Assembly (NCBI GenBank): GCA_046563655.1 | Contig: CM102284.1 | Span: 4,836,001 to 4,900,000 of the forward strand | Length of the DNA: 64,000 bases | From: Yuukianura sp. NJ FZ-2021 | Taxonomy: Eukaryota | Reading direction: 5' to 3' | In this document: positions 1-47,134 of the stretch, one piece after another | How positions within the stretch are numbered: the first letter of the stretch is position 1 | Layout: the number at the start of each line of letters is the position of its first letter | Notes under the pieces: generated by a model | Databases searched by the model: none | Told to the model about the DNA's origin: nothing | Seen by the model: the letters and a program-made list of their open reading frames with translations, nothing else | Position numbers and translations under genes: made by a program

Positions 1-378
1 AATGTAGCCGAGCTAATTGCGCATGGCAAGCAAATTGTGGGCGATCTCAATCGGACTAGACGTTTTGAAAACAAGCCTTTGATTCGTGCGACAGCTTCTG
101 ACGATTTTTCCGATTTCAATCAAAGACTCAAGGACAGAGCAGCAGCACGTCAACCGTCTAGAGCGGCTTACATTCCCAGGGAATCGTTTCAACCGCAGCC
201 TATTGGGCCTATTTCAGTCCCACCCGAAAATTCTGGGGCAAGTCAATTCTTTCCAAAGCAAGACTCGGAGGCTCAAACAGCTCCAATTTTTTCTGCTATG
301 ACTCCAAAACAACCGGAAATTTCCTATTCGCGCCCAGACCGCGCTCCTAATATTCCGCCAAACTCCGACGGAAGGTAG
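1..378 (+). CDS. gag: Gag C-terminal part (partial, frame open from base 1)
   Basis: Frame 1 is open from 1 to TAG 376-378, has a Pro/Ser-rich tail and overlaps the pol frame, which opens after TAA 348-350. Confidence 0.75.
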   Translation, partial: NVAELIAHGKQIVGDLNRTRRFENKPLIRATASDDFSDFNQRLKDRAAARQPSRAAYIPRESFQPQPIGPISVPPENSGASQFFPKQDSEAQTAPIFSAMTPKQPEISYSRPDRAPNIPPNSDGR

Positions 379-3300
379 GACGGGAGCTCCCTATCCTTCC
401 GAAATCGGATTTTTCCAAAGCAGCTCCCACAATCAAAATCAAAATTCGGAATTCCTTTTATTTTGCTCATTTGGATTCGCTATCAACTTATTCGCACATT
501 TCCGCTTCTTTAGCAAAAGAACTCGGAATGATCATTCACAAAGGGCAAATTCAACTAACGATTGGTGACTCAAGTACAATCAGTACTTCCGGAACAGGAG
601 AGTTACATTTCAAAATTTATACGGACGATTACATTCACACAGTCCACATTCTCCAGTCTCCGCCTTTTCCAATTATTCTCGGACTTGACTTTATTCGGAA
701 ATATCATTTGGTCCCGGATTTTCATGACGGTACATTTTCTATTCTCGGAACTAAAACAAGAGGTCGACTCGAATACTATTTTCAAAACCGTGAGTACTTA
801 TGTGCATTGCTCGGTCTCAGTGACGCGCAAACTGAGGAACTGAAGCATTTGACCGATAGTTTTCCAGCACTTTTCTCTTCTCAGTTAGGCCAAACTGATT
901 GGGTGAAGTGTGAGTTGACACCGTCTCCCGGACCTCCTATTTCCTCTAAACCCTATCCTGTTAGTCCTTTCAAGCGACAGCTCATTTCAGACAACATTTC
1001 GGAAATGTTGAAATTGGGCGTCATTGAACCCTCTGATTCTGAGTGGGCCTCCCCTGTATATATGCACACTCGTGACAAAGGTCAGTCATGGAGATTTACT
1101 TTGGATTTACGGAAAGTAAATGCTCGGCTACCTCATGATCCTTTTCCTATTCCTAGATTAGATTATTTATTTCATAACTTAGGTCAAGCTAAATTTCTTT
1201 CGGTGATTGATCTTAAGAAGGGCTACTGGCAAGTGGCCATGGACCCACAGAGCGCAAAGTACACCGCTTTCATTTGTCATGAGGGTAAATTTCAATTTAC
1301 GCGCATGCCCTTTGGTTTAAAGTCGGCCCCTTCTTTATTTCAACGCCTTGTAAATAAAATTTTAGGCACAGCGCGAGGACGCTTTGCTGACGGTTACATA
1401 GACGATATAATCGTCTATTCTAGTTCCTGGAAGGAACATTTAGAGCATCTCAAATACGTTTTTGAGAGATTAAATGCGGCTGGTCTCACTGTAAATATGC
1501 AGAAATGTGAGTTCGGTAAAACTACCCTCAAGTACTTAGGGTACATTGTTTCTCCAAATGGAATTGAGAGAGATCCGGATAAGATTTCCGCTGTTTCTGA
1601 TTTTCCCAGGCCGACGACACCCAAACAAGTTCGTCAGTTTTTAGGTCTTTGTTCTTGGTATCGACAGTTTGTCGAAAAATTTTCGGAGCTCAGCGAGCCC
1701 CTGAACCGGTTATTACATAAGGATGTTCCTTTTGTTTGGTCAGACGACCAGGAATCTGCATTTTTAAGGCTCAGAGCAGCCATTTGTTCGGATGATTTGG
1801 TTTTGGCTTTCCCGGATTTTTCCAAAGAGTTTATTATTCGGACGGACGCGTCACGAGTTGGAGTATCCGCGGTTTTAGCCCAAGAAATTAACGGATTTGA
1901 GAGACCCATTGCATTTGCGAGCCGCTCTTTAAATAACGCTGAGAAGAATTACGGTTCCAGCGAAATTGAATGTGTCGGTATTTTATTTGCTTTAAAGAAA
2001 TTTGAACATTACATTGACGGTCAAAGATTTCGGCTTGAGACCGACAACAAAGCTTTGGTTTGGTTGGACAAAATGAAAGACGTAAACAGCAAGTTTACTC
2101 GTTGGGCCCTTCGTATTCAAGATTTTCAGCCCATTATTACGCATTGTCCTGGCAAACTTAACGTTGTTGCTGATGCCCTGTCACGTGCTCCCGTGGGAGA
2201 AAGTGAGGATTGTGAAGATCACCGCGAAAAATTAAATTTTCCATTAAATTGTTCTTCACCCGCCATTTTTCTTTCATTGACGCGCGAAATTTCATTGGAG
2301 ACGCTCAAAGAAGAGCAAAGTAAAGATTTAGAAGTCCAAGCACTGCTTACGGACACTGGAAAGGATTTCGTAGTCGACGACGGAATTCTTTACCGTTTGG
2401 GGAAATACTCCGGAAAGCTTCCCTTCATTCCATCATCTTTACGTTCTCAAGTTTTGAGCTATTTCCATGATAGACCGGAAGCAGGTCACATGGGCTTTCG
2501 TAAAACGCTGTACCGTCTTTTGCGTCGCGTCTTTTGGTTCGGAATGCACGAAGACATTTACAAATTTGTTCAGTCTTGCGACATTTGTCAGCGGATTAAA
2601 AATCCTACTTCTAAACCGGTTGGTCAACTTCAAAGTGTTCAAACCAGAGGTCCTTGGGACATGCTGGCTCTAGATCTGATTGGTCCCCTTACGAAAACTC
2701 AACGTCAAAATACTTTCTTGCTCGTTGTCACTGATCATTTTACAAAATGGGTAGAATTATTCCCAATTCGAGAAGCTACGGCTCCTATGATCATTAAAAA
2801 AGTCGAGCAAGAAATTTTCTGTCGTTTCGGCCGTCCTAGAGCCTTGCTAAGCGATAACGGTTCTCAATTTACTTCGGAGTTATTCAAAAAGCTTTGCAAA
2901 ACATGGAATGTCAAATTGAAGTACACCACTACTTATCATCCCCAGGCAAATATCACTGAGCGCGTAAATCGTAACGTCATTGCTATTCTTCGCGCCTACG
3001 TCGCGAGAAAACACAGCAAATGGGATGAAAATTTACCGGAAGTCGCCATGGCTTTACGCACTGCTATTTCGGATTCTACCGGTTTTAGTCCTTCTATGCT
3101 CAATTTTGGTCGTGAACTTTCGACTCCCTTTGATTTAGCGCTAGACGACTCTGACAGCGATGATTTTGCTGAGTGGACGCAGTACCAACTCACGTTGATT
3201 GAACGGCTTTTTAAAGTTTACCGTTTGGCTAGAGAGAACATAGAAAAAGCGCAAGCGTCGCAGGCTAAATACTACAACAAGCACCGTCGTTCTGATGCGT

Positions 3301-3614
3301 TTCAAATTGGCGATTTGGTACTTTTGCGTACTCATGAGAAGTCTGACAAAGCCAAGGGTTACATGAAAAAGTTCGCATTTAAGTGGGAAGGCCCTTACAT
3401 GGTTTTTGAAAAGGTTACGGATTTAGTTTATGGCCTGAAATTTTGCGATTCTGACGAGGAAATTGGTCGTCATAACATTGTGAATCTAAAACGCTACTTT
3501 TCAAGGCCAGGAACAGTCATTTCAGCGCCTTTGCCGCCTTCTAAGATCCCTAAATCAAAGCCTGAGCCTGTCATTAGCAATTACAATCTGCGCAGTCGTG
3601 GTACACTCAATTGA
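351..3614 (+). CDS. pol: Pol polyprotein (aspartic protease, RT, RNase H, integrase), probably reached by -1 frameshift
   Basis: Protease region (HLDSLST...IILGLDF), RT YIDD, RNase H TDAS, integrase HHCC (H..GHMG..CDIC), DDE core (LDL..SDNG..ER) and GPY/F motif (WEGPY). No stops or frameshifts. Confidence 0.95.
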   Translation, partial: YSAKLRRKVGRELPILPKSDFSKAAPTIKIKIRNSFYFAHLDSLSTYSHISASLAKELGMIIHKGQIQLTIGDSSTISTSGTGELHFKIYTDDYIHTVHILQSPPFPIILGLDFIRKYHLVPDFHDGTFSILGTKTRGRLEYYFQNREYLCALLGLSDAQTEELKHLTDSFPALFSSQLGQTDWVKCELTPSPGPPISSKPYPVSPFKRQLISDNISEMLKLGVIEPSDSEWASPVYMHTRDKGQSWRFTLDLRKVNARLPHDPFPIPRLDYLFHNLGQAKFLSVIDLKKGYWQVAMDPQSAKYTAFICHEGKFQFTRMPFGLKSAPSLFQRLVNKILGTARGRFADGYIDDIIVYSSSWKEHLEHLKYVFERLNAAGLTVNMQKCEFGKTTLKYLGYIVSPNGIERDPDKISAVSDFPRPTTPKQVRQFLGLCSWYRQFVEKFSELSEPLNRLLHKDVPFVWSDDQESAFLRLRAAICSDDLVLAFPDFSKEFIIRTDASRVGVSAVLAQEINGFERPIAFASRSLNNAEKNYGSSEIECVGILFALKKFEHYIDGQRFRLETDNKALVWLDKMKDVNSKFTRWALRIQDFQPIITHCPGKLNVVADALSRAPVGESEDCEDHREKLNFPLNCSSPAIFLSLTREISLETLKEEQSKDLEVQALLTDTGKDFVVDDGILYRLGKYSGKLPFIPSSLRSQVLSYFHDRPEAGHMGFRKTLYRLLRRVFWFGMHEDIYKFVQSCDICQRIKNPTSKPVGQLQSVQTRGPWDMLALDLIGPLTKTQRQNTFLLVVTDHFTKWVELFPIREATAPMIIKKVEQEIFCRFGRPRALLSDNGSQFTSELFKKLCKTWNVKLKYTTTYHPQANITERVNRNVIAILRAYVARKHSKWDENLPEVAMALRTAISDSTGFSPSMLNFGRELSTPFDLALDDSDSDDFAEWTQYQLTLIERLFKVYRLARENIEKAQASQAKYYNKHRRSDAFQIGDLVLLRTHEKSDKAKGYMKKFAFKWEGPYMVFEKVTDLVYGLKFCDSDEEIGRHNIVNLKRYFSRPGTVISAPLPPSKIPKSKPEPVISNYNLRSRGTLN

Positions 3615-38549: not shown

Positions 38550-39994
38550 AAAATTCAAAAATACAACAATCAACACACAGCAATAATCATTTCCAAAGTC
38601 AATTAACGTTAAACTACACGTTCGAAGCTCTAAGTAATCACACTAGATTCCTCTTATCCAAATTAATCTAAAATCTTTTACCTCAAAACACCGAATAAAC
38701 CTGATTTTCTGAAAAAAAAAAGTTAGCCTTTGCGAACACGGATTGTGACCTTGACCTAGGTCATTTCGGTTTAAAACCAAAAGATTTTAAGTTTAAGATT
38801 TCTAAACTTTGGTACAGCATCTTTTTGGTATCCGATGACACGGGTATTAGAATTTGGATAAGCTTTTGTAACAATGATCCACTTAAAAGCACTGCTGCGA
38901 AACTGAGAGCACGACGGTACATGATACTTGCAGCATTTTCAACTGGGGCAGATGCTGCATTCCCAGTCTTATGGCCACTTTTTCAACATTGTACGTTGAC
39001 AATGACAACGGAGCGTCCGTGGATTCAATTTCCACTGCAGGCTTCAACACTTCAAGTTTCGAATGTAAGCCAAACAATTTAGCAGCACCTCCACGGCCTA
39101 TACGAAGCAAACACATCACAAATTAGAATATACCTTCGTAGATGATACCAAAATCATAGGATATCCTTACCAATTGGTTTTGGCAGTACACAAGTACACA
39201 CACGGGAGTTGACATGGTTGAAGTTCCTCCCTTCGATGGATCTTACAAATAATACACTGGACACAAGAGTTACCACTTGTAACTTACAAGGAGTTACAAA
39301 AATTTATTAAATTAATTTAGATTTACAAATTAATTCTAGCCAAATAACAAGTAAAGAGGGCCCTTATTCACCAATTATCCTAACAAGAGGTGTAATAATT
39401 ACTAAAATCTCCCTCCAAGTTAAAACATCCGAAAAATCTATTACACAACTTATGATAGGAGGATCAAAAGGAATGAAACTTGTCTGGACCCACACTCTAT
39501 TTCAATAAAACTAATCCAATTAATTGATTTAAACAAAAACTGTTAATCGTAAACCTAAAACTAAAACTTCTGGACCACGGCATCTCTCAAAGTTTCAAAC
39601 TGTTGGATCAGCGTGGTTGTAAGGGAGTCCAAGGATATCGACGTGGGAGAAGACAACAGGAGGGCAGCTCCAATGGACACGGACATTCCGCAGCACAACA
39701 GTGCTGCCCTCATTACACTTCTTCTCCCCAGTTGACTCTTGGACGCGGGAACTGGAGCAGTCCCGTTGTCTATACGACGACCACTGGATCCAGGGAGATT
39801 AGTGCTATTGGTCCTTACCAAATTAGAATTAAGTCTATTAACTTCCTCAACTAAACTAATTTCTACTCTACGCAGGGGAGGAAGTTGGTTCCGATTATTC
39901 TTTTCAATACGTCCTACGGACACACGTCTTCGTGGGTCACGTGATTCCAATTGTCGTGTCGCTGAATGACGTGAGCTCCGCTCCGTCGAGGCCC

Positions 39995-41607
39995 TCAATC
40001 TTCTTGTCCGTGATACGTTGTCCTAAAAACAGCAAAAAACGATCGATTATGAACGCAGTCAAGCGTACTTTCTACTACAAAATCCCCCAAGTAATATTCA
40101 CCAAGCATAAAACACAAGCTGAAGTTTATGCTGCTAGGAAGCTGCATGCTTGAATTGGAAACGTTTTAGAATGAAAATGTGGTAAGCATTAATCGATAAT
40201 CGAGTGACATAGTGTCAATTAGTAGGTTATTGGTTAAAGGAAGGCGAATAGGATTAGGAACTGAGGTATAGGATTAGGAACTGAGGTTAGTTTCAAAAGA
40301 ATTGGGCACAAAAGTTTGTGAATTACGGTGCGTTACCTCGGTTTGTTAGAATTCCGACGAGACGAACGAACTCCAGCGTTTCTGTTTGTGTCAAAGTATC
40401 GTTGCGTCTGCTTGCGGGCTACTCTAGTCTCCCTCGGAACTCGTTCTTTCAACTTGTAGGAAAACAGTTAAAAATTGTGTCAGATTAACTTCAATTCACC
40501 ATAAATGTTCCACTTTTAAGTAAAAGCTTCATTCCAATGTTCTTGACAAGTGGTGGGAAACTAAACTAACCGCCTGTACGAGGATGAGGATAAAATGAAA
40601 TTAAACCAAAGGGAGCAAAAGAAAAACGAAGGTGAAAGAATAAAGTTGCAAAGTCTAACAGCGTAAGTTGTTAGTTTAGCATGGATAGATGCAAATGCAA
40701 TCGGTTTAGTTAGAACGGATGCAGAAGAACCCAAAATAAGAGCCGTCATGTGACTTACGTTGTCGACTTTGTGCATGAAGGCTTCAACGAGCGCATGACA
40801 CGACAGGTTTTCTTCAGGCTCCCAAGTTGCCCTCTCTTTGCTATAGCCTTTCCATTTGATGAGGAACTCACGCTTATGATTCTTATTTGTGTGTACGTCC
40901 ATGATGCGGTCAACCTAAAGTGTTTGGATTGCAGAAAATCAATTAGCATTCAACAATTTTTGATTAGTAATTAGTTATAAACGTACCTCATATTCAGTTC
41001 CGGAATCTTCGTCTGTTTCTGGCTCTTCCTTCTTTGGCTTCTTAGCCTCTCGTTTGGAACCTTTACGTCCTTTCGGCTTCCCATTCTTTGCCGGGCGTTT
41101 GGATCCAGTAGCGACACGCCGCTTGCTGCTAGAAGCTTCAGCTTCCTCTTCCTTGTCTTCGTCACTGCCCTCCGAATCTGAAGCATGGTCTTCTGAATTA
41201 GCGTTGCTGGATTCTGTTTTGCTAGATGAAGCTTTCTTGGATGCTTTCAGATTTTTGGAAGCCCTTTTTCCGGCACTGGATTTTTTCTTTTTGGGAGCGG
41301 GGGCACTCAATTCTTCTTCGTCTGTGTCGTCGTGTTCCGAATTGCTAGCAGCCTCCTCGGCAGTTGATTCTTCCTTCTTCGCAGACGTTTTGGCCGTAGA
41401 AATCGTATTTCTTCCTTTTCCCTTATTGTTTACATTCCGTTCGTCTTCCTCCTCTGCTCTCTCGTCTTCACTATGGCTGGAGTTGACATGTTCTTGATCA
41501 TCCCCGGAATCTTCATCGCGGTACGATGCCTTGGTGGCTTTACGCCTTGTCGAAGTTGAAGCCTTACTCTTTGGGACTGTGGTAGAACGTTTCTTCGGCC
41601 TACCCAT
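39995..41607 (-). CDS. Chromodomain protein with acidic/basic disordered N-terminus (exon-3-included isoform, ~306 aa)
   Basis: Exons 41607-40987, 40914-40759, 40452-40337 and 40022-39995. Chromodomain EYEVDRIMD...EFLIKWKGYSKERATWEPEENLSC with intact Y/W/Y cage; no chromoshadow domain seen. Confidence 0.85.
40248..40287. repeat. 20-bp tandem duplication in an intron
   Basis: ATAGGATTAGGAACTGAGGT occurs twice in tandem. Confidence 0.85.
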
Positions 41608-43072
41608 CTTAGTATATGAAAGAAATCTGCGCTAAACAAAATTAGTGATCTCAGTTAATGCTATTACTAGGCTCTCCTTTTAAAAATTGGTGTATGGAGC
41701 AACGTCAAACGTTCTTCTTATTCTGTTGTTCCTTACCTAGTTTTAGTTAGGGAAGGGTACTGCTCTTTTCACACACAGTAGCACGATTACGTTCCGTGTC
41801 TCTCCAATCCAGTAAAGTTCAACTAACAAAACAAAAGTCAAATAATATTAAGTAACTTACACTTTGACGGCTAAAGACTAAAAAGTCTCATATTTTTCCA
41901 AGGCCTTTTCCTTACCTCTGATGGAGTGTCGCCGAGCCACTAATCGTTTCTTCGGATCGTTCCAAATTCCTCTGCGTTCACTTGTAACTCCTAATGAAGT
42001 AAATCCCAGCAAAACTTCGGTGTTGGCTGTTTGCGAATCGCGAAATCCAGTCTGTTTTCTAAACTCCGTTCCCTCCTGTTTTCCAAACAGAAACACATCT
42101 ACGCGTACGCAGTATAGGCAGAGACAGAGAGCAGAGAGGTATAGGAGCCAGCGGTTGGGGTAACGAAAACGTACATTTATTGGTACCACAAATGTAACCA
42201 CGGCCGCAGTAAGGCTAATCAGGGTCGCTGGATGATCGACCACTATCAATAAACTGACCCTGTTTATTAGTAAAGATAAAAGGTCTGATTTACTTTGTTT
42301 TTACTTTAACACAACTTTATCTTTACTTATACTTTACGTGTATAACCCGCAATAATTATTATTGCGGCAATAACAATTATTGTGGCCAACCCACCCGTTA
42401 CGAAACTAAATTCATTTATTTTTGCAACGAGTGGCTACATACGACGAACCTCACCTAAACTACCCGCACAAAAGGTGTGTAAAATGATTGCCAAAATTTA
42501 ACCAGGTATTGTACGCCGCTGGTGGTTTGAATTTCATAGGTACATTGGTGGGTTACAATGTGGTTACAACGGTGGCAATTGTCCTTACCAGAATCGAGAA
42601 GCAGTACGGCGGCTATGATGATCCAGAAGATATGACCGGGCAAAACAAAAAGAGACGCCACGCCACACTATGTCAGTTGACAATATTGGCGCGAAAAAAA
42701 GACTGTTAGTTACAGTTGCTGCCCAACGACGCAGTTTAGCATCCGCGGGCACCCATCTTGCAAACTGTAGGTACGAAAGTAGCGAAGGGTAGTTAACCTT
42801 TGACCTGGACAACACTTAATGCATGGTTAGCAAATGGTGACGTGTGTTTGAGCAAACCGTAGGAAACTTAAGTCCGCTGCCTACTCATACAGTAACCTCC
42901 ATAAATCATCTGCTTAGGGCACACGCAGACTCAACAACAATGGCATCGGTGACCCTACATAATAGAGAGTTATTATGTTGTTTCTGTTTCAAAGGTTACA
43001 TTTTCTAGAAGAAAGAATGCTAATAATTGTCAATAACGTTTTCGGACAAACGAAATAAAAACCTTAGACGTT

Positions 43073-44334
43073 TTAATATTTGTAACTCTGTTCAAGCCTC
43101 TTCTTGGTATGTTCATACGCTGACACTGGAACAAGATTTTGGCAAGTCTTGGCTTGTGGTCCGATTGGTGCCACCATCACGCTGTCGTCTGGGTGTATAA
43201 AATAAGGTATCGATTGCCTGTAGATTTGCTTCTTCGTTTCAATTTCAGGAATTAAGACACGGTGAACCTAAAAATCAACCGTGCAAGTTAGTCAACGACA
43301 AAATTGTTACTAATCGAAATCACTTTTGAATCTTACCGTCGCTGGATATCTTCCTCCAGACCAAAATTTTAGTAAATCTCCAGTGTTAAGAAGAATCGTT
43401 CCAGGAACTGGCGTTGCTGGTACCCATACTCCATCAGCTCTTAGAACCTAAAATTTTTCCAGAAAAATTAGAAACGATTAAATCCGAAATGGTGCAACTC
43501 AAATTCTAGAAATTGCAGAAACAATTGTATAGTTTTATACTTCGAGTCCGCCAATGTCATCTTGGAACAGTAGCGTGATTGTCCCATAATCTGAATGCGG
43601 AGAGCACCGAATGCTGCCCGGTTCAACATTTTCCGGAATGGGAGGGTAGAATATTGACCGAAAAGTTGTGTACGAGCTAACAGTTGGATCAGTGAATGCT
43701 TTTGAAACGTTATTGAAGTATTCCACATCTTCAAGCTGCAGCGCCCTTGCTAACAGTCTATGGATGCTGGCAATTAGTGGATGACATGCGCTGGCCAATC
43801 GGACCAAAGCTGACACAAATCCAGGACTTTCTGGAATCAGTTCTTGAACTTCGAGCTTTCCTTTTATGTTGATGGAAACGTCGAAACTCTCTCGCAATTC
43901 GGTCGTATACTTCCCTGGTTCAAGTCTTTAAAAATGTGTAACGAATTTCTCAAAATAAATTTTTAATAGCATTGTTCTGAAATAGTTTGACCTTTGACCT
44001 TACATTTCTCTGCTTGGTGAAGTATATCCATAGATATTCGGGAACTGCTTGACATACTTTTCTTTCAGCTCAGTTGGAAGCGTAAAAAATTCTAAACTTT
44101 TCGCAAAGGCATCGTCTACCTTGGTATCAAAAATTGAATTTTTCAAAAATTTTAGAATTCTCTTCCAAAATTATTTTTAAAACTTACAAGTTCTTGAGGT
44201 ACTCCATGATTTTTCAAGTAGATGAAGCCGATTGAAGACAGCACTTGGTCCACTCTATTGGAAACTGAAATCCACTCTTCCTCAGAGGGGTCACAGAGCA
44301 GTGACCCAATGTCAACTACTGGAATGCTCTCCAT
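43073..44334 (-). CDS. 2-oxoglutarate/Fe(II) dioxygenase (DIOX_N + 2OG-FeII_Oxy, IPNS-fold family), 5 exons
   Basis: IPVVDIG, IGFIYLKNHGV, HSDYGTITLLFQD..GGLEV, ATVHRV, RQS. Confidence 0.92.
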
Positions 44335-45180: not shown

Positions 45181-47134
45181 ATGGACACGCCAACATCATT
45201 CTCACAGGTAAAATATGACACTTAAAACAGAAGTTATAGCTTTCTTTTCAATTTCAATAAGAGATATAAATTTAAAGTAAATTTTTGGCCATTTTCCAGA
45301 TTGCCAGTTCTCAAATTTTGAGAAAAATCATCTCTTACTTACCGAAAAACGACCAACTGAACGTTCGCCTGGTGAACAAATGCTGGAACAGTGAAGCTCG
45401 TTACGCCATTGACGAATACGGTCTTACCAAAATTTGGTTAATCGAGAAATGTGACATGGATAGATTCCTGCGGGATTTTCCCAGCGCATGCGTGCAGCTC
45501 GACTTGAAAATCGCTGCAGCATCAATGTCCTACCAACAATTGGAGACTTTTGGAACCATTCACGGTAGTTCCGTGATTATCGGAGAAATTTGGCTTCCTC
45601 CGATGATCCAGAATTGGATGGAACACAAAGCTCGCTTGAGCATCAAGTACTGGACCAACGTTCAGAAATTGTCTGTCCGCTACTATTCATTCTTCATCTC
45701 AAGTCCCGAACTTCCTGAAGCACAGCAGACCATTTGCAGCAAATTTCCGAAATTTGAATTCCTGCGGGAACTGTGCGTCAGTGGCGTCACAACGGAACTG
45801 GAACTGATGCGTGACGTTCTCATCAATACTCCAGCGATGCTCAAAGTCGATCTGGAAATTATGTCCACAAATCCACCAATCCCAGCAGCTCTTCGGCCAC
45901 TACTGGACACTTTGTGTCAAGTTTCTGCCGACGCTATTGTCAATCTAGACGTTGGATTGGATTTCCTACCGCCCGAGAACCGTGCCCAGGCCACTCCTGC
46001 TCAATCAACGAAAACATTTTTGGAAGAAATGAAAGATTCTGGATTAGTTCCAGACGAACTACGCATTTCTTTGATCGTTGAGGTAGGTCCATGCCACCTC
46101 TTCGAAGGCGAAGTTCCGAAACTGGATTTGCCGGGTTGTATTGACGCCCAGTTGCAACCTTGGTTGAAGCAAGTATGCGAAGGCGGTCTGGAGAAACTGG
46201 CAATCCGAAGTGCAATTCCATCATTGGTGAGAATGAACATGTCACACAAGATGCCGGAACTGACAGTTCTTGACCTTGGATTCCACCTTGACACGCTGTT
46301 TCTTGGAGGATTCTTCGGTTTGTTCGGACTGATCGAACCAATGGAACCGATCAAATCTTGCCAAGTTCCAAACCTGGATACAATCATTTCCAGTGGAGTA
46401 CACAATCCTATGAGCAAGACTTGCGTCTTTCACCAAGTTACACGCCTTCGTCTGTACCATGGTGCCCAAATCTACAAACTGCCGTTGACGCTTTTCGAAG
46501 ATTTTTCTGGATCATGGGTGACGCAGTTTCCAAATTTAACTGCAGTGGACATCCCTGTGTTACCAGAAAGTTATGGGGCAATCAAGTCGCTTTTTACAAA
46601 TTTTGGGAACCTCACGGAACTCAGACTGCTTTTCAACGAAAATCTGTACGATGAAGATGAGGACACGACTGAAGGCAGTTGGGACGTTATGACTGGCGGT
46701 CTCCGACCAATCATGGACGCGGATACGTCCCTGGCTGTTCTCAAGGGCGAATCAACCAGTGGTGGTAGTAGTTGTGCTGGGTCTGCATCGGCGTCGGCTA
46801 CTGCTGGTCAACCTTCCATCAAAAACTTGAAAAGTGAGAAAAACTTAACTCGAATTGGTGTTTTTAGGACAGTGACCTCGTGTGACCTTTGTGTCTTTCC
46901 ATTCTTCTAGATCTCAAAATGTTGGATCTCTTTGGTCCACCGGACTGCATCGTCATGGCTATCATTCACTTTACTGCAACGAAGGCCATTCCGCGTCTGA
47001 ACAAACTCAAGATGTCGTTGGTCAACGAAGAAATGCTGTCGGTGGTCAGCAATTGCTGGGACGTTCTGTCGCCTTACCATGGAAGAGTGGACGTCACGGA
47101 TTCTTTTCCGGTGCCAATGTTGCCCAAGTGGTAA
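45181..47134 (+). CDS. F-box protein with degenerate LRR-like C-terminal region (3 exons)
   Basis: ILRKIISYLPKNDQLNVRLVNKCWN F-box-like segment and LxxLxL repeats; exons 45181-45207, 45300-46833, 46911-47134. Confidence 0.75.

Follow-up and report, generated by a model that had tools for sequence, protein, structure and literature searches.

The stretch of DNA analysed here comprises 64,000 nucleotides (nt) of Yuukianura sp. NJ FZ-2021 (contig CM102284.1 of assembly GCA_046563655.1, positions 4,836,001 to 4,900,000; hereafter the window) and carries on its minus strand a predicted chromodomain gene, whose ATG lies at 41607-41605 and whose last exon can be read in two frames. A preliminary description of the locus had proposed that this gene switches, through the use or skipping of its third exon, between a soluble methyl-lysine reader and a membrane-anchored one. 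The exon coordinates, the phase 0 end of exon 2, the 116 nt of exon 3 with its AAG acceptor and the beginning of the last exon at 40022 were all confirmed in the sequence, and the parts of the gene are the following.

40987..41607, minus strand: exon 1, 621 nt or 207 codons, a Lys/Glu/Ser-rich N-terminal region, presumably disordered and without a Pfam family
40915..40986, minus strand: intron 1, 72 nt, GTACGT...TTTAG
40759..40914, minus strand: exon 2, 156 nt or 52 codons, the chromodomain, ending in phase 0 and followed by GTAAGT, the donor common to both splice forms
40453..40758, minus strand: intron 2, 306 nt, removed when exon 3 is included
40337..40452, minus strand: exon 3, a 116-nt cassette exon of 38 codons plus 2 nt, with an AAG acceptor and the donor AG/GTAACG
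40023..40336, minus strand: intron 3, 314 nt, GTAACG...TTTTTAG
39995..40022, minus strand: last exon in its short reading, (R)TTYHGQED and a TGA stop at 39997-39995, after exon 3
39561..40022, minus strand: last exon in its long reading, in phase 0 after exon 2, 153 codons and a TAG stop at 39563-39561

The length of exon 3 is no multiple of three, so that its inclusion shifts the downstream frame, in the window and alike in a related locus, L001, that is described below. When the exons are joined from their coordinates, the form with exon 3 comes to 306 amino acids (aa; ~34 kDa) and the form without it, in which 40023-40758 is removed as a single 736-nt intron, to 412 aa (~46 kDa), which reproduces the protein lengths and the open frame of 153 codons of the preliminary description. 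The two introns flanking exon 3 also have the proposed size of about 300 nt. A further statement, that most introns of the region measure some 70 nt, holds for the 72 nt of intron 1, and the window-wide count of donor and branch motifs gave an intron-length estimate no different from a random control and is uninformative. The included form ends after a conserved basic peptide of 47 residues, exon 3 coding for its conserved basic sequence (…RKQTQRYFDTNRNAGVRSSRRNSNKPR), and the long reading of the last exon begins with an Arg/Ser-rich linker, after which come a conserved helix, a hydrophobic segment and finally a tail. This long frame opens exactly at the last-exon acceptor, with an in-frame TAG just upstream, and the two frames of the last exon overlap over only ~28 nt, or 37 nt when the end of exon 3 is counted.

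As the long frame lies downstream of the stop of the included form, it might be regarded as a chance open frame in a 3′ untranslated region. When its 459 nt were shuffled 20000 times, the frame remained open in only 5 cases, and the two remaining frames of this exon contain 10 and 13 stops. Moreover, an exhaustive HMMER search of 1,835,955,588 representative proteins returned seven relatives of the long frame (E-values of 1.4e-14 to 7.9e-06), all of them from Logan, JGI/IMG and ENA assemblies, on contigs of 720-2745 nt, and none of them named. The alignment of these seven relatives with the long frame of the window (A1) has 17 invariant columns, 15 of which fall between R101 and S125 in the motif R-AALL-x-x-G-x-x-x-S-x-GAA-x-LLSS, the remaining two being N65 and L145. 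The conservation is specific to this frame: in a comparison of the last exon with L001 over all frame pairs, the BLOSUM62 local score was 211 in the long frame and at most 55 elsewhere, and for the hydrophobic segment and tail the proportion of amino-acid-changing differences, 0.32, is far below that of silent ones, 0.96. Judged by these comparisons the long frame is not a chance frame, and the reading as an accidental frame deserves practically no credence. The tail family that it defines lacks a Pfam model and is named in no source, and the best hit of its profile against the sequences of the PDB had an E-value of 0.25, so that no relative was found there.

Three relatives allow the joins of the proposed gene to be followed in contiguous sequences, where all four proposed junctions (1/2, 2/3, 3/last and 2/last) were found. 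The first of them, P0011 (309 aa, encoded on a 1277-nt contig and a member of cluster 6), is a complete protein that begins with MGKPKGK, which the N-terminus MGRPKKR of the window matches, and continues through a Lys/Glu-rich region, the chromodomain, the linker and the hydrophobic tail. Its sequence ...AEDN-DLSRARRVSS... runs from the chromodomain directly into the linker and the tail, as in the skipped form, and is collinear, with no insertion or deletion, with the join of exon 2 and last exon in the window (...HKVDN-DNVSRTRR...). The second relative, P0012 (239 aa, with a precomputed Pfam Chromo assignment), was found by a search with the exon-3 peptide, to which it is ~79% identical, and represents the included form: it ends ...LEQ-LKDRIPREVRVERKQTQRYFDSSRNAGVRSSRRNSQRPR-TTYHGLDD where the window reads ...VDN-LKERVPRETRVARKQTQRYFDTNRNAGVRSSRRNSNKPR-TTYHGQED. 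The third, L001, is a 1260-nt intronless locus, the only one confirmed among 116 matched stretches in a metagenome scan, in which an open reading frame at 2-499 contains the chromodomain, the homologue of exon 3 and the ending RTTYFDQEAD, with its stop at 497-499, and the tail frame stays open from 460 to 885 in the -1 frame. By codon register the exon-2 homologue of L001 ends at 352, and the exon-3 homologue occupies 353-468, exactly 116 nt, exon 3 of the window aligning up to position 468 with 86 of 110 nt identical. The short ending of the window and its stop thus recur in both relatives that carry exon 3, as RTTYHGLDD in P0012 and RTTYFDQEAD in L001. As for the remaining joins, EYE/VDRI at exons 1 and 2 is collinear with EYEIDRI in P0012 and EYEVEKI in P0011 and L001, and VDN/LKER at exons 2 and 3 with LEQLKDR in P0012.

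Both L001 and P0012 carry exon 3, and the gene caller reported the tail frame of L001 as a protein of its own (P0009), so that one could suppose that exon 3 is always included and that the long frame is reached by ribosomal frameshifting or reinitiation, or belongs to a separate downstream gene. Several features speak against such an arrangement, which we hold to be very improbable. The only Met of the long frame of the window stands two residues before the hydrophobic segment, past the linker and the conserved helix, and an independent initiation would therefore lose both of these conserved elements; the frame opens exactly at the splice acceptor; and P0011 is a single protein of 309 aa in which the chromodomain is fused to the tail at the position of the join between exon 2 and the last exon. 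Programmed -1 frameshifting was considered separately and rejected, there being no X_XXY_YYZ slippery heptamer in the overlap of the two frames, 37 nt in the window and 40 nt in L001. The fused P0011, the lack of a slippery heptamer and the fitting strengths of the splice sites make exon skipping the simplest route to the long frame. Either isoform leaves a conserved coding frame apparently untranslated, and for this reason gene callers split or truncate the gene.

Selection on the two readings was assessed between the window and L001 by Nei-Gojobori proportions of nonsynonymous (pN) and synonymous (pS) differences, the synonymous sites being saturated and hence no dN/dS ratio being given. The values were pN 0.176 and pS 0.728 for exon 3, pN 0.261 and pS 0.868 for the chromodomain exon, and pN 0.323 and pS 0.955 for the hydrophobic segment and tail. 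The 35 differences in exon 3 are distributed as 8, 7 and 20 over the first, second and third codon positions, and its BLOSUM62 local score against the homologue in L001 is 136 in the coding frame and at most 74 in the others. As amino-acid change is far below silent change in all three parts, both C-termini are, on this comparison, under purifying selection, with exon 3 the most constrained of the three, and both products look functional. The long frame is thus intact and selected in relatives, as the proposed switch demanded; the view of exon 3 as a weak, near-incidental exon, on the other hand, has to be abandoned, for its peptide is the most conserved part of the gene. Two other ideas about this exon were rejected: it is not a poison exon, as it codes for a conserved alternative C-terminus, and it does not contain a mimic of the histone H3 tail, as the ARK of VARKQTQ in the window is not conserved in VERKQTQ of P0012 and VGPKQTQ of L001.

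The splice sites of the gene are of unequal strength. The outer pair is strong (the donor GTAAGT of exon 2 and the last-exon acceptor TTTTTAG, which follows a 70% pyrimidine tract) and the pair of exon 3 is weak, AAG being a rare acceptor and GTAACG a non-consensus donor. These weak sites, together with the direct join seen in P0011, would suit a scenario in which this organism makes only the skipped messenger RNA for the 412-aa protein and exon 3 is an unused relic within the 736-nt intron. Against it, the frame of exon 3 is intact, both of its splice sites and the downstream stop are in place, it shows the strongest constraint within the gene in the comparison with L001, with 20 of its 35 differences at third positions, and its identity to P0012 contrasts with the decay at synonymous-site rates (pS 0.73) to which a relic would be subject; we therefore regard the scenario as improbable. 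As to branch sites, the ACTAAC motif that had been noticed upstream of exon 3 does exist in intron 2, but at 218 nt from the acceptor, the nearest branch-like motif being a TCTGAC at 27 nt.

Some side observations concern the introns and the linker. Intron 3 contains at 40248-40287 a perfect tandem repeat of 2 x 20 nt (100% matches), each copy of which carries a CCTAAT branch-like motif at ~230-250 nt upstream of the last-exon acceptor; this repeat might act on the choice of exon 3, either as a decoy branch site or as a site for a splicing regulator. The frame of exon 2 continues past its donor for 65 hydrophobic codons before a stop (40561-40758), and retention of intron 2 would append this stretch, for which there is no evidence of conservation, to the chromodomain. 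A MAFFT alignment (A2) set the linker of P0011 (SSRPSTIRSTR...) against the exon-3 peptide (SSRNAGVRSSRR...), and the long-frame linker of the window also contains ERSSRH; to judge from this likeness, exon 3 may stem from a duplicated copy of the first part of the linker (39960-40022).

The chromodomain itself is clearly recognized, exon 2 matching Pfam Chromo (PF00385) with an E-value of 2.3e-17 and 63.1 bits against a cut-off of 25.1, and exon 1, exon 3 and the long frame matched no Pfam family at E-values up to 1. The best solved relatives of P0012 are human CBX5/HP1alpha (1.3e-16), CBX1, CBX3 and Drosophila HP1, followed by CDY-type domains, MPP8, Chp1 and Clr4, with the Polycomb type last. 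In the alignment of P0012 with CBX5 the Y of EY, the W of KWKG and the aromatic residue after KG are matched, columns that we take to form the methyl-lysine cage, and the window has the same aromatics, namely the Y with which exon 1 nearly closes (...GTEYE, the Tyr codon at 40992-40990, aligned with the first aromatic-cage position of HP1-class chromodomains) and the W and Y of IKWKGY. A chromoshadow domain was not found by Pfam in exon 3 or in the long frame, the sole Chromo_shadow signal (15.7 bits against a cut-off of 22.4) falling on the chromodomain itself. By its chromodomain the predicted protein is thus of the HP1 class, yet it is not HP1 proper, because no chromoshadow domain accompanies it.

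A closer view of the long frame, modelled with AlphaFold2 on alignment A1, gave three helices (57-72, 100-124 and 136-152), which are placed in the window as follows.

39807..39854, minus strand: conserved short helix, long-frame residues 57-72, SLVEEVNRLNSNLVRT, with the invariant Asn65 (AlphaFold2)
39651..39725, minus strand: predicted membrane helix, long-frame residues 100-124, with a predicted local distance difference test score (pLDDT) of about 74-78 in AlphaFold2
39651-39707, minus strand: hydrophobic core of the membrane helix, residues 106-124, after the basic flank GRRSVMR
39564..39650, minus strand: C-terminal tail, 29 residues, with a predicted helix at 136-152 and the invariant Leu145

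The hydrophobic segment (AALLCCGMSVSIGAALLLS) has a Kyte-Doolittle 19-residue mean that peaks at 2.03, and in the 412-aa form no other segment reaches 1.6 (the windows that do so start at residues 362-367); the 306-aa form has no stretch at this level, with a maximum of 0.11. The 15 residues ahead of the segment carry a net charge of +4, and the 29 residues after it one of -1, in keeping with the basic flank, hydrophobic helix and tail of about 30 residues that had been described. In each of the 11 tail-bearing sequences (P0001-P0011) the maximum falls on the same segment, with values between 1.81 and 2.12, and 27-43 residues come after it; the tail-less P0012 has a maximum of 0.07. Hydropathy and the AlphaFold2 model thus agree on a predicted helix of the transmembrane type that is conserved across the 11 sequences. 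A tail anchor is usually recognized by a hydropathy threshold of 1.6, by a limit of roughly 30-40 residues after the segment and by the lack of any further hydrophobic segment or of a signal peptide. One hydrophobic helix at the C-terminal end, preceded by a basic flank, followed by a short tail and accompanied by no other such segment in the 412-aa form, is the signature of a tail-anchored membrane protein, and membrane insertion is predicted from it. The near-invariance of the helix suggests in addition a specific partner in the membrane; a model of self-association with two copies of tail residues 50-153 scored 0.01 and returned no answer. AlphaFold2 was likewise uninformative on the included form, the model of P0012 (4 rows) having a mean pLDDT of 50.2 with the exon-3 peptide unstructured.

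Altogether, the comparison with relatives supports the proposed switch between a soluble and a C-terminally anchored form, and we lean towards reading the locus as one gene with fungal-type introns, encoding a protein with an HP1-class chromodomain and no chromoshadow domain, that has two conserved C-termini chosen by a cassette exon and would thereby yield either a membrane-anchored or a soluble chromatin reader. Several points weigh against this reading. The two isoforms were seen in different relatives and never both in one species; the species of P0011 could lack exon 3, and it is conceivable that L001 is no transcript but genomic DNA from a relative poor in introns. The full-length skipped form was found once, in 1 of the 11 tail-bearing sequences. 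A search for longer tail-bearing proteins gave 1408 candidates, none of which scored, a weak negative, and one with region 175-309 of P0011 gave 275 candidates, again with none scoring, a result that is also weak since P0011, not being a cluster representative, could not itself be returned; the ESM Atlas held no usable match for P0011. No CTRAY branch-like motif occurs within 190 nt of the last-exon acceptor. Finally, the AlphaFold2 model of the long frame is of low overall confidence (mean pLDDT 57.6), and the hydrophobic segment, rich in Gly, Ala, Ser and Cys, is only moderately hydrophobic.

If the switch operates as proposed, its two products could act as follows. The hydrophobic helix would serve as a tail anchor, inserted post-translationally into the endoplasmic reticulum (ER) and the nuclear envelope, and the nucleoplasmic part of the long form, roughly 360 residues, basic and mostly disordered, would reach the inner nuclear membrane, to which the lysine-rich disordered N-terminal part would carry the protein. 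There the chromodomain, with its cage intact, would bind methyl-lysine, most likely methylated lysine 9 of histone H3 (H3K9me), and the long form would hold H3K9-methylated chromatin at the nuclear envelope. The short form, by this scheme a soluble reader in the nucleoplasm, could compete for the same marks, and the balance between the forms would be set by the weak sites of exon 3 against the strong outer sites. Both the position at the inner nuclear membrane and the tethering of heterochromatin are what we infer, and no more than that. In its full extent, the idea is that a single polypeptide may constitute a complete tether between heterochromatin and the nuclear envelope, combining an HP1-type H3K9me reader, an Arg/Ser linker and an inner-membrane tail anchor, in a lineage whose genes are of the fungal type and which presumably has neither lamins nor LBR, and that the conserved cassette exon makes a competing soluble reader, splicing thereby setting the amount of silent chromatin at the periphery; we advance it tentatively, as a possibility that falls somewhat short of probable.

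The switch and its proteins could also be real with the helix anchored elsewhere, in the ER, the mitochondrial outer membrane or the peroxisome, or buried as a partner-binding helix, the chromodomain then reading a non-histone ligand and no tether existing at the inner nuclear membrane. With 15 of the 17 invariant columns, the segment varies less than one would expect of a simple anchor, which suggests specific helix-helix contacts, and its hydropathy of 1.8-2.1 is moderate. Furthermore, chromodomains with non-histone ligands do exist, chloroplast cpSRP43 being an example. Such an outcome is nevertheless somewhat unlikely in our judgement. The chromodomain is closest to HP1-type H3K9me readers and has its aromatics at the columns matched in CBX5, the remainder of the protein is Lys/Arg-rich, as expected of a nuclear protein (82 Lys and Arg in the 412-aa form), and the basic flank before the helix and the slightly acidic tail after it follow the pattern of ER-type and not of mitochondrial-type anchors.

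The remaining features of the window lie apart from these questions. At 351-3614 on the plus strand a frame of 1087 codons resembles a pol of the Ty3/gypsy type that seems to be intact, its domains being reverse transcriptase, RNase H, integrase zinc-binding and integrase core. Directly upstream of the chromodomain gene, at 41881-42300 on the minus strand, a frame of 140 codons matches the Frizzled/Smoothened membrane region (E-value 1.5e-05, 24.8 bits against a cut-off of 22.3), which is an uncommon family to find in an organism whose introns are of the fungal type. It is followed at 43538-43927 on the minus strand by a fragment matching the 2OG-Fe(II) oxygenase family (1.3e-05), and at 45276-46907 on the plus strand by a frame of 544 codons with a sub-threshold F-box match (20.1 bits against a cut-off of 20.5). 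No transfer RNA gene and no Rfam family at gathering score was found across the 64-kb window.

Among known systems, the HP1 proteins (CBX1, CBX3 and CBX5) share with the present one the class of the chromodomain, the acidic stretch before it and the basic region after it. They differ in that the chromoshadow domain, and with it the module for dimerisation and PxVxL binding, is absent here, where two alternative C-termini are found instead, one of them hydrophobic. In function the nearest parallels are LBR and CEC-4. The latter is a protein of Caenorhabditis elegans for which we know of no predicted transmembrane helix and which is also a chromodomain protein without a chromoshadow domain; a tether of methylated chromatin to the envelope is for the present protein only proposed. 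In the available portion of the literature on it, CEC-4 binds H3K9me1/2/3, is a chromodomain anchor at the inner membrane that acts independently of lamins and has an attachment to the membrane that is left unexplained (PMC4783997). The same portion describes for CEC-4 no splicing switch between anchored and soluble forms, which is a difference from the gene reported here.

Similarity is also found with LBR, which, according to the accessible part of the source, binds chromatin through a tudor domain (residues 1-60) and an RS domain (61-89) (PMC5617974). The combination of a methyl-lysine reader, an Arg/Ser-rich segment and a membrane anchor is common to both, as an analogy and not as membership, since LBR has a tudor domain in place of a chromodomain and eight membrane segments forming a sterol reductase in place of a single C-terminal helix. 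There is no sequence relation between them either, Pfam finding only Chromo in the protein of the window and nothing in its tail. In yeasts, Bqt4 is a tail-anchored protein. Bqt4 of Schizosaccharomyces pombe and Lem2 are listed among the nuclear-envelope tethers of chromatin in the available sections of PMC4783997; they differ from the present protein in acting through DNA, telomere proteins or other factors and not through a chromodomain.

The hold of methylated heterochromatin at the envelope is thus known piecemeal, from LBR in vertebrates, CEC-4 in nematodes, and Lem2 and others in yeasts. No description of a chromodomain protein with a C-terminal membrane anchor was found in the full-text literature as far as its retrieved portions extend, subscription-only papers lying outside this scope, and what is new here is a candidate tether of heterochromatin to the envelope that is built on an unnamed C-terminal domain family, its tether role being plausible. 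If this role is true, a chromodomain joined straight to a membrane anchor would be a tether of the simplest conceivable kind, and the soluble isoform of the same gene would place nuclear architecture under the control of splicing.

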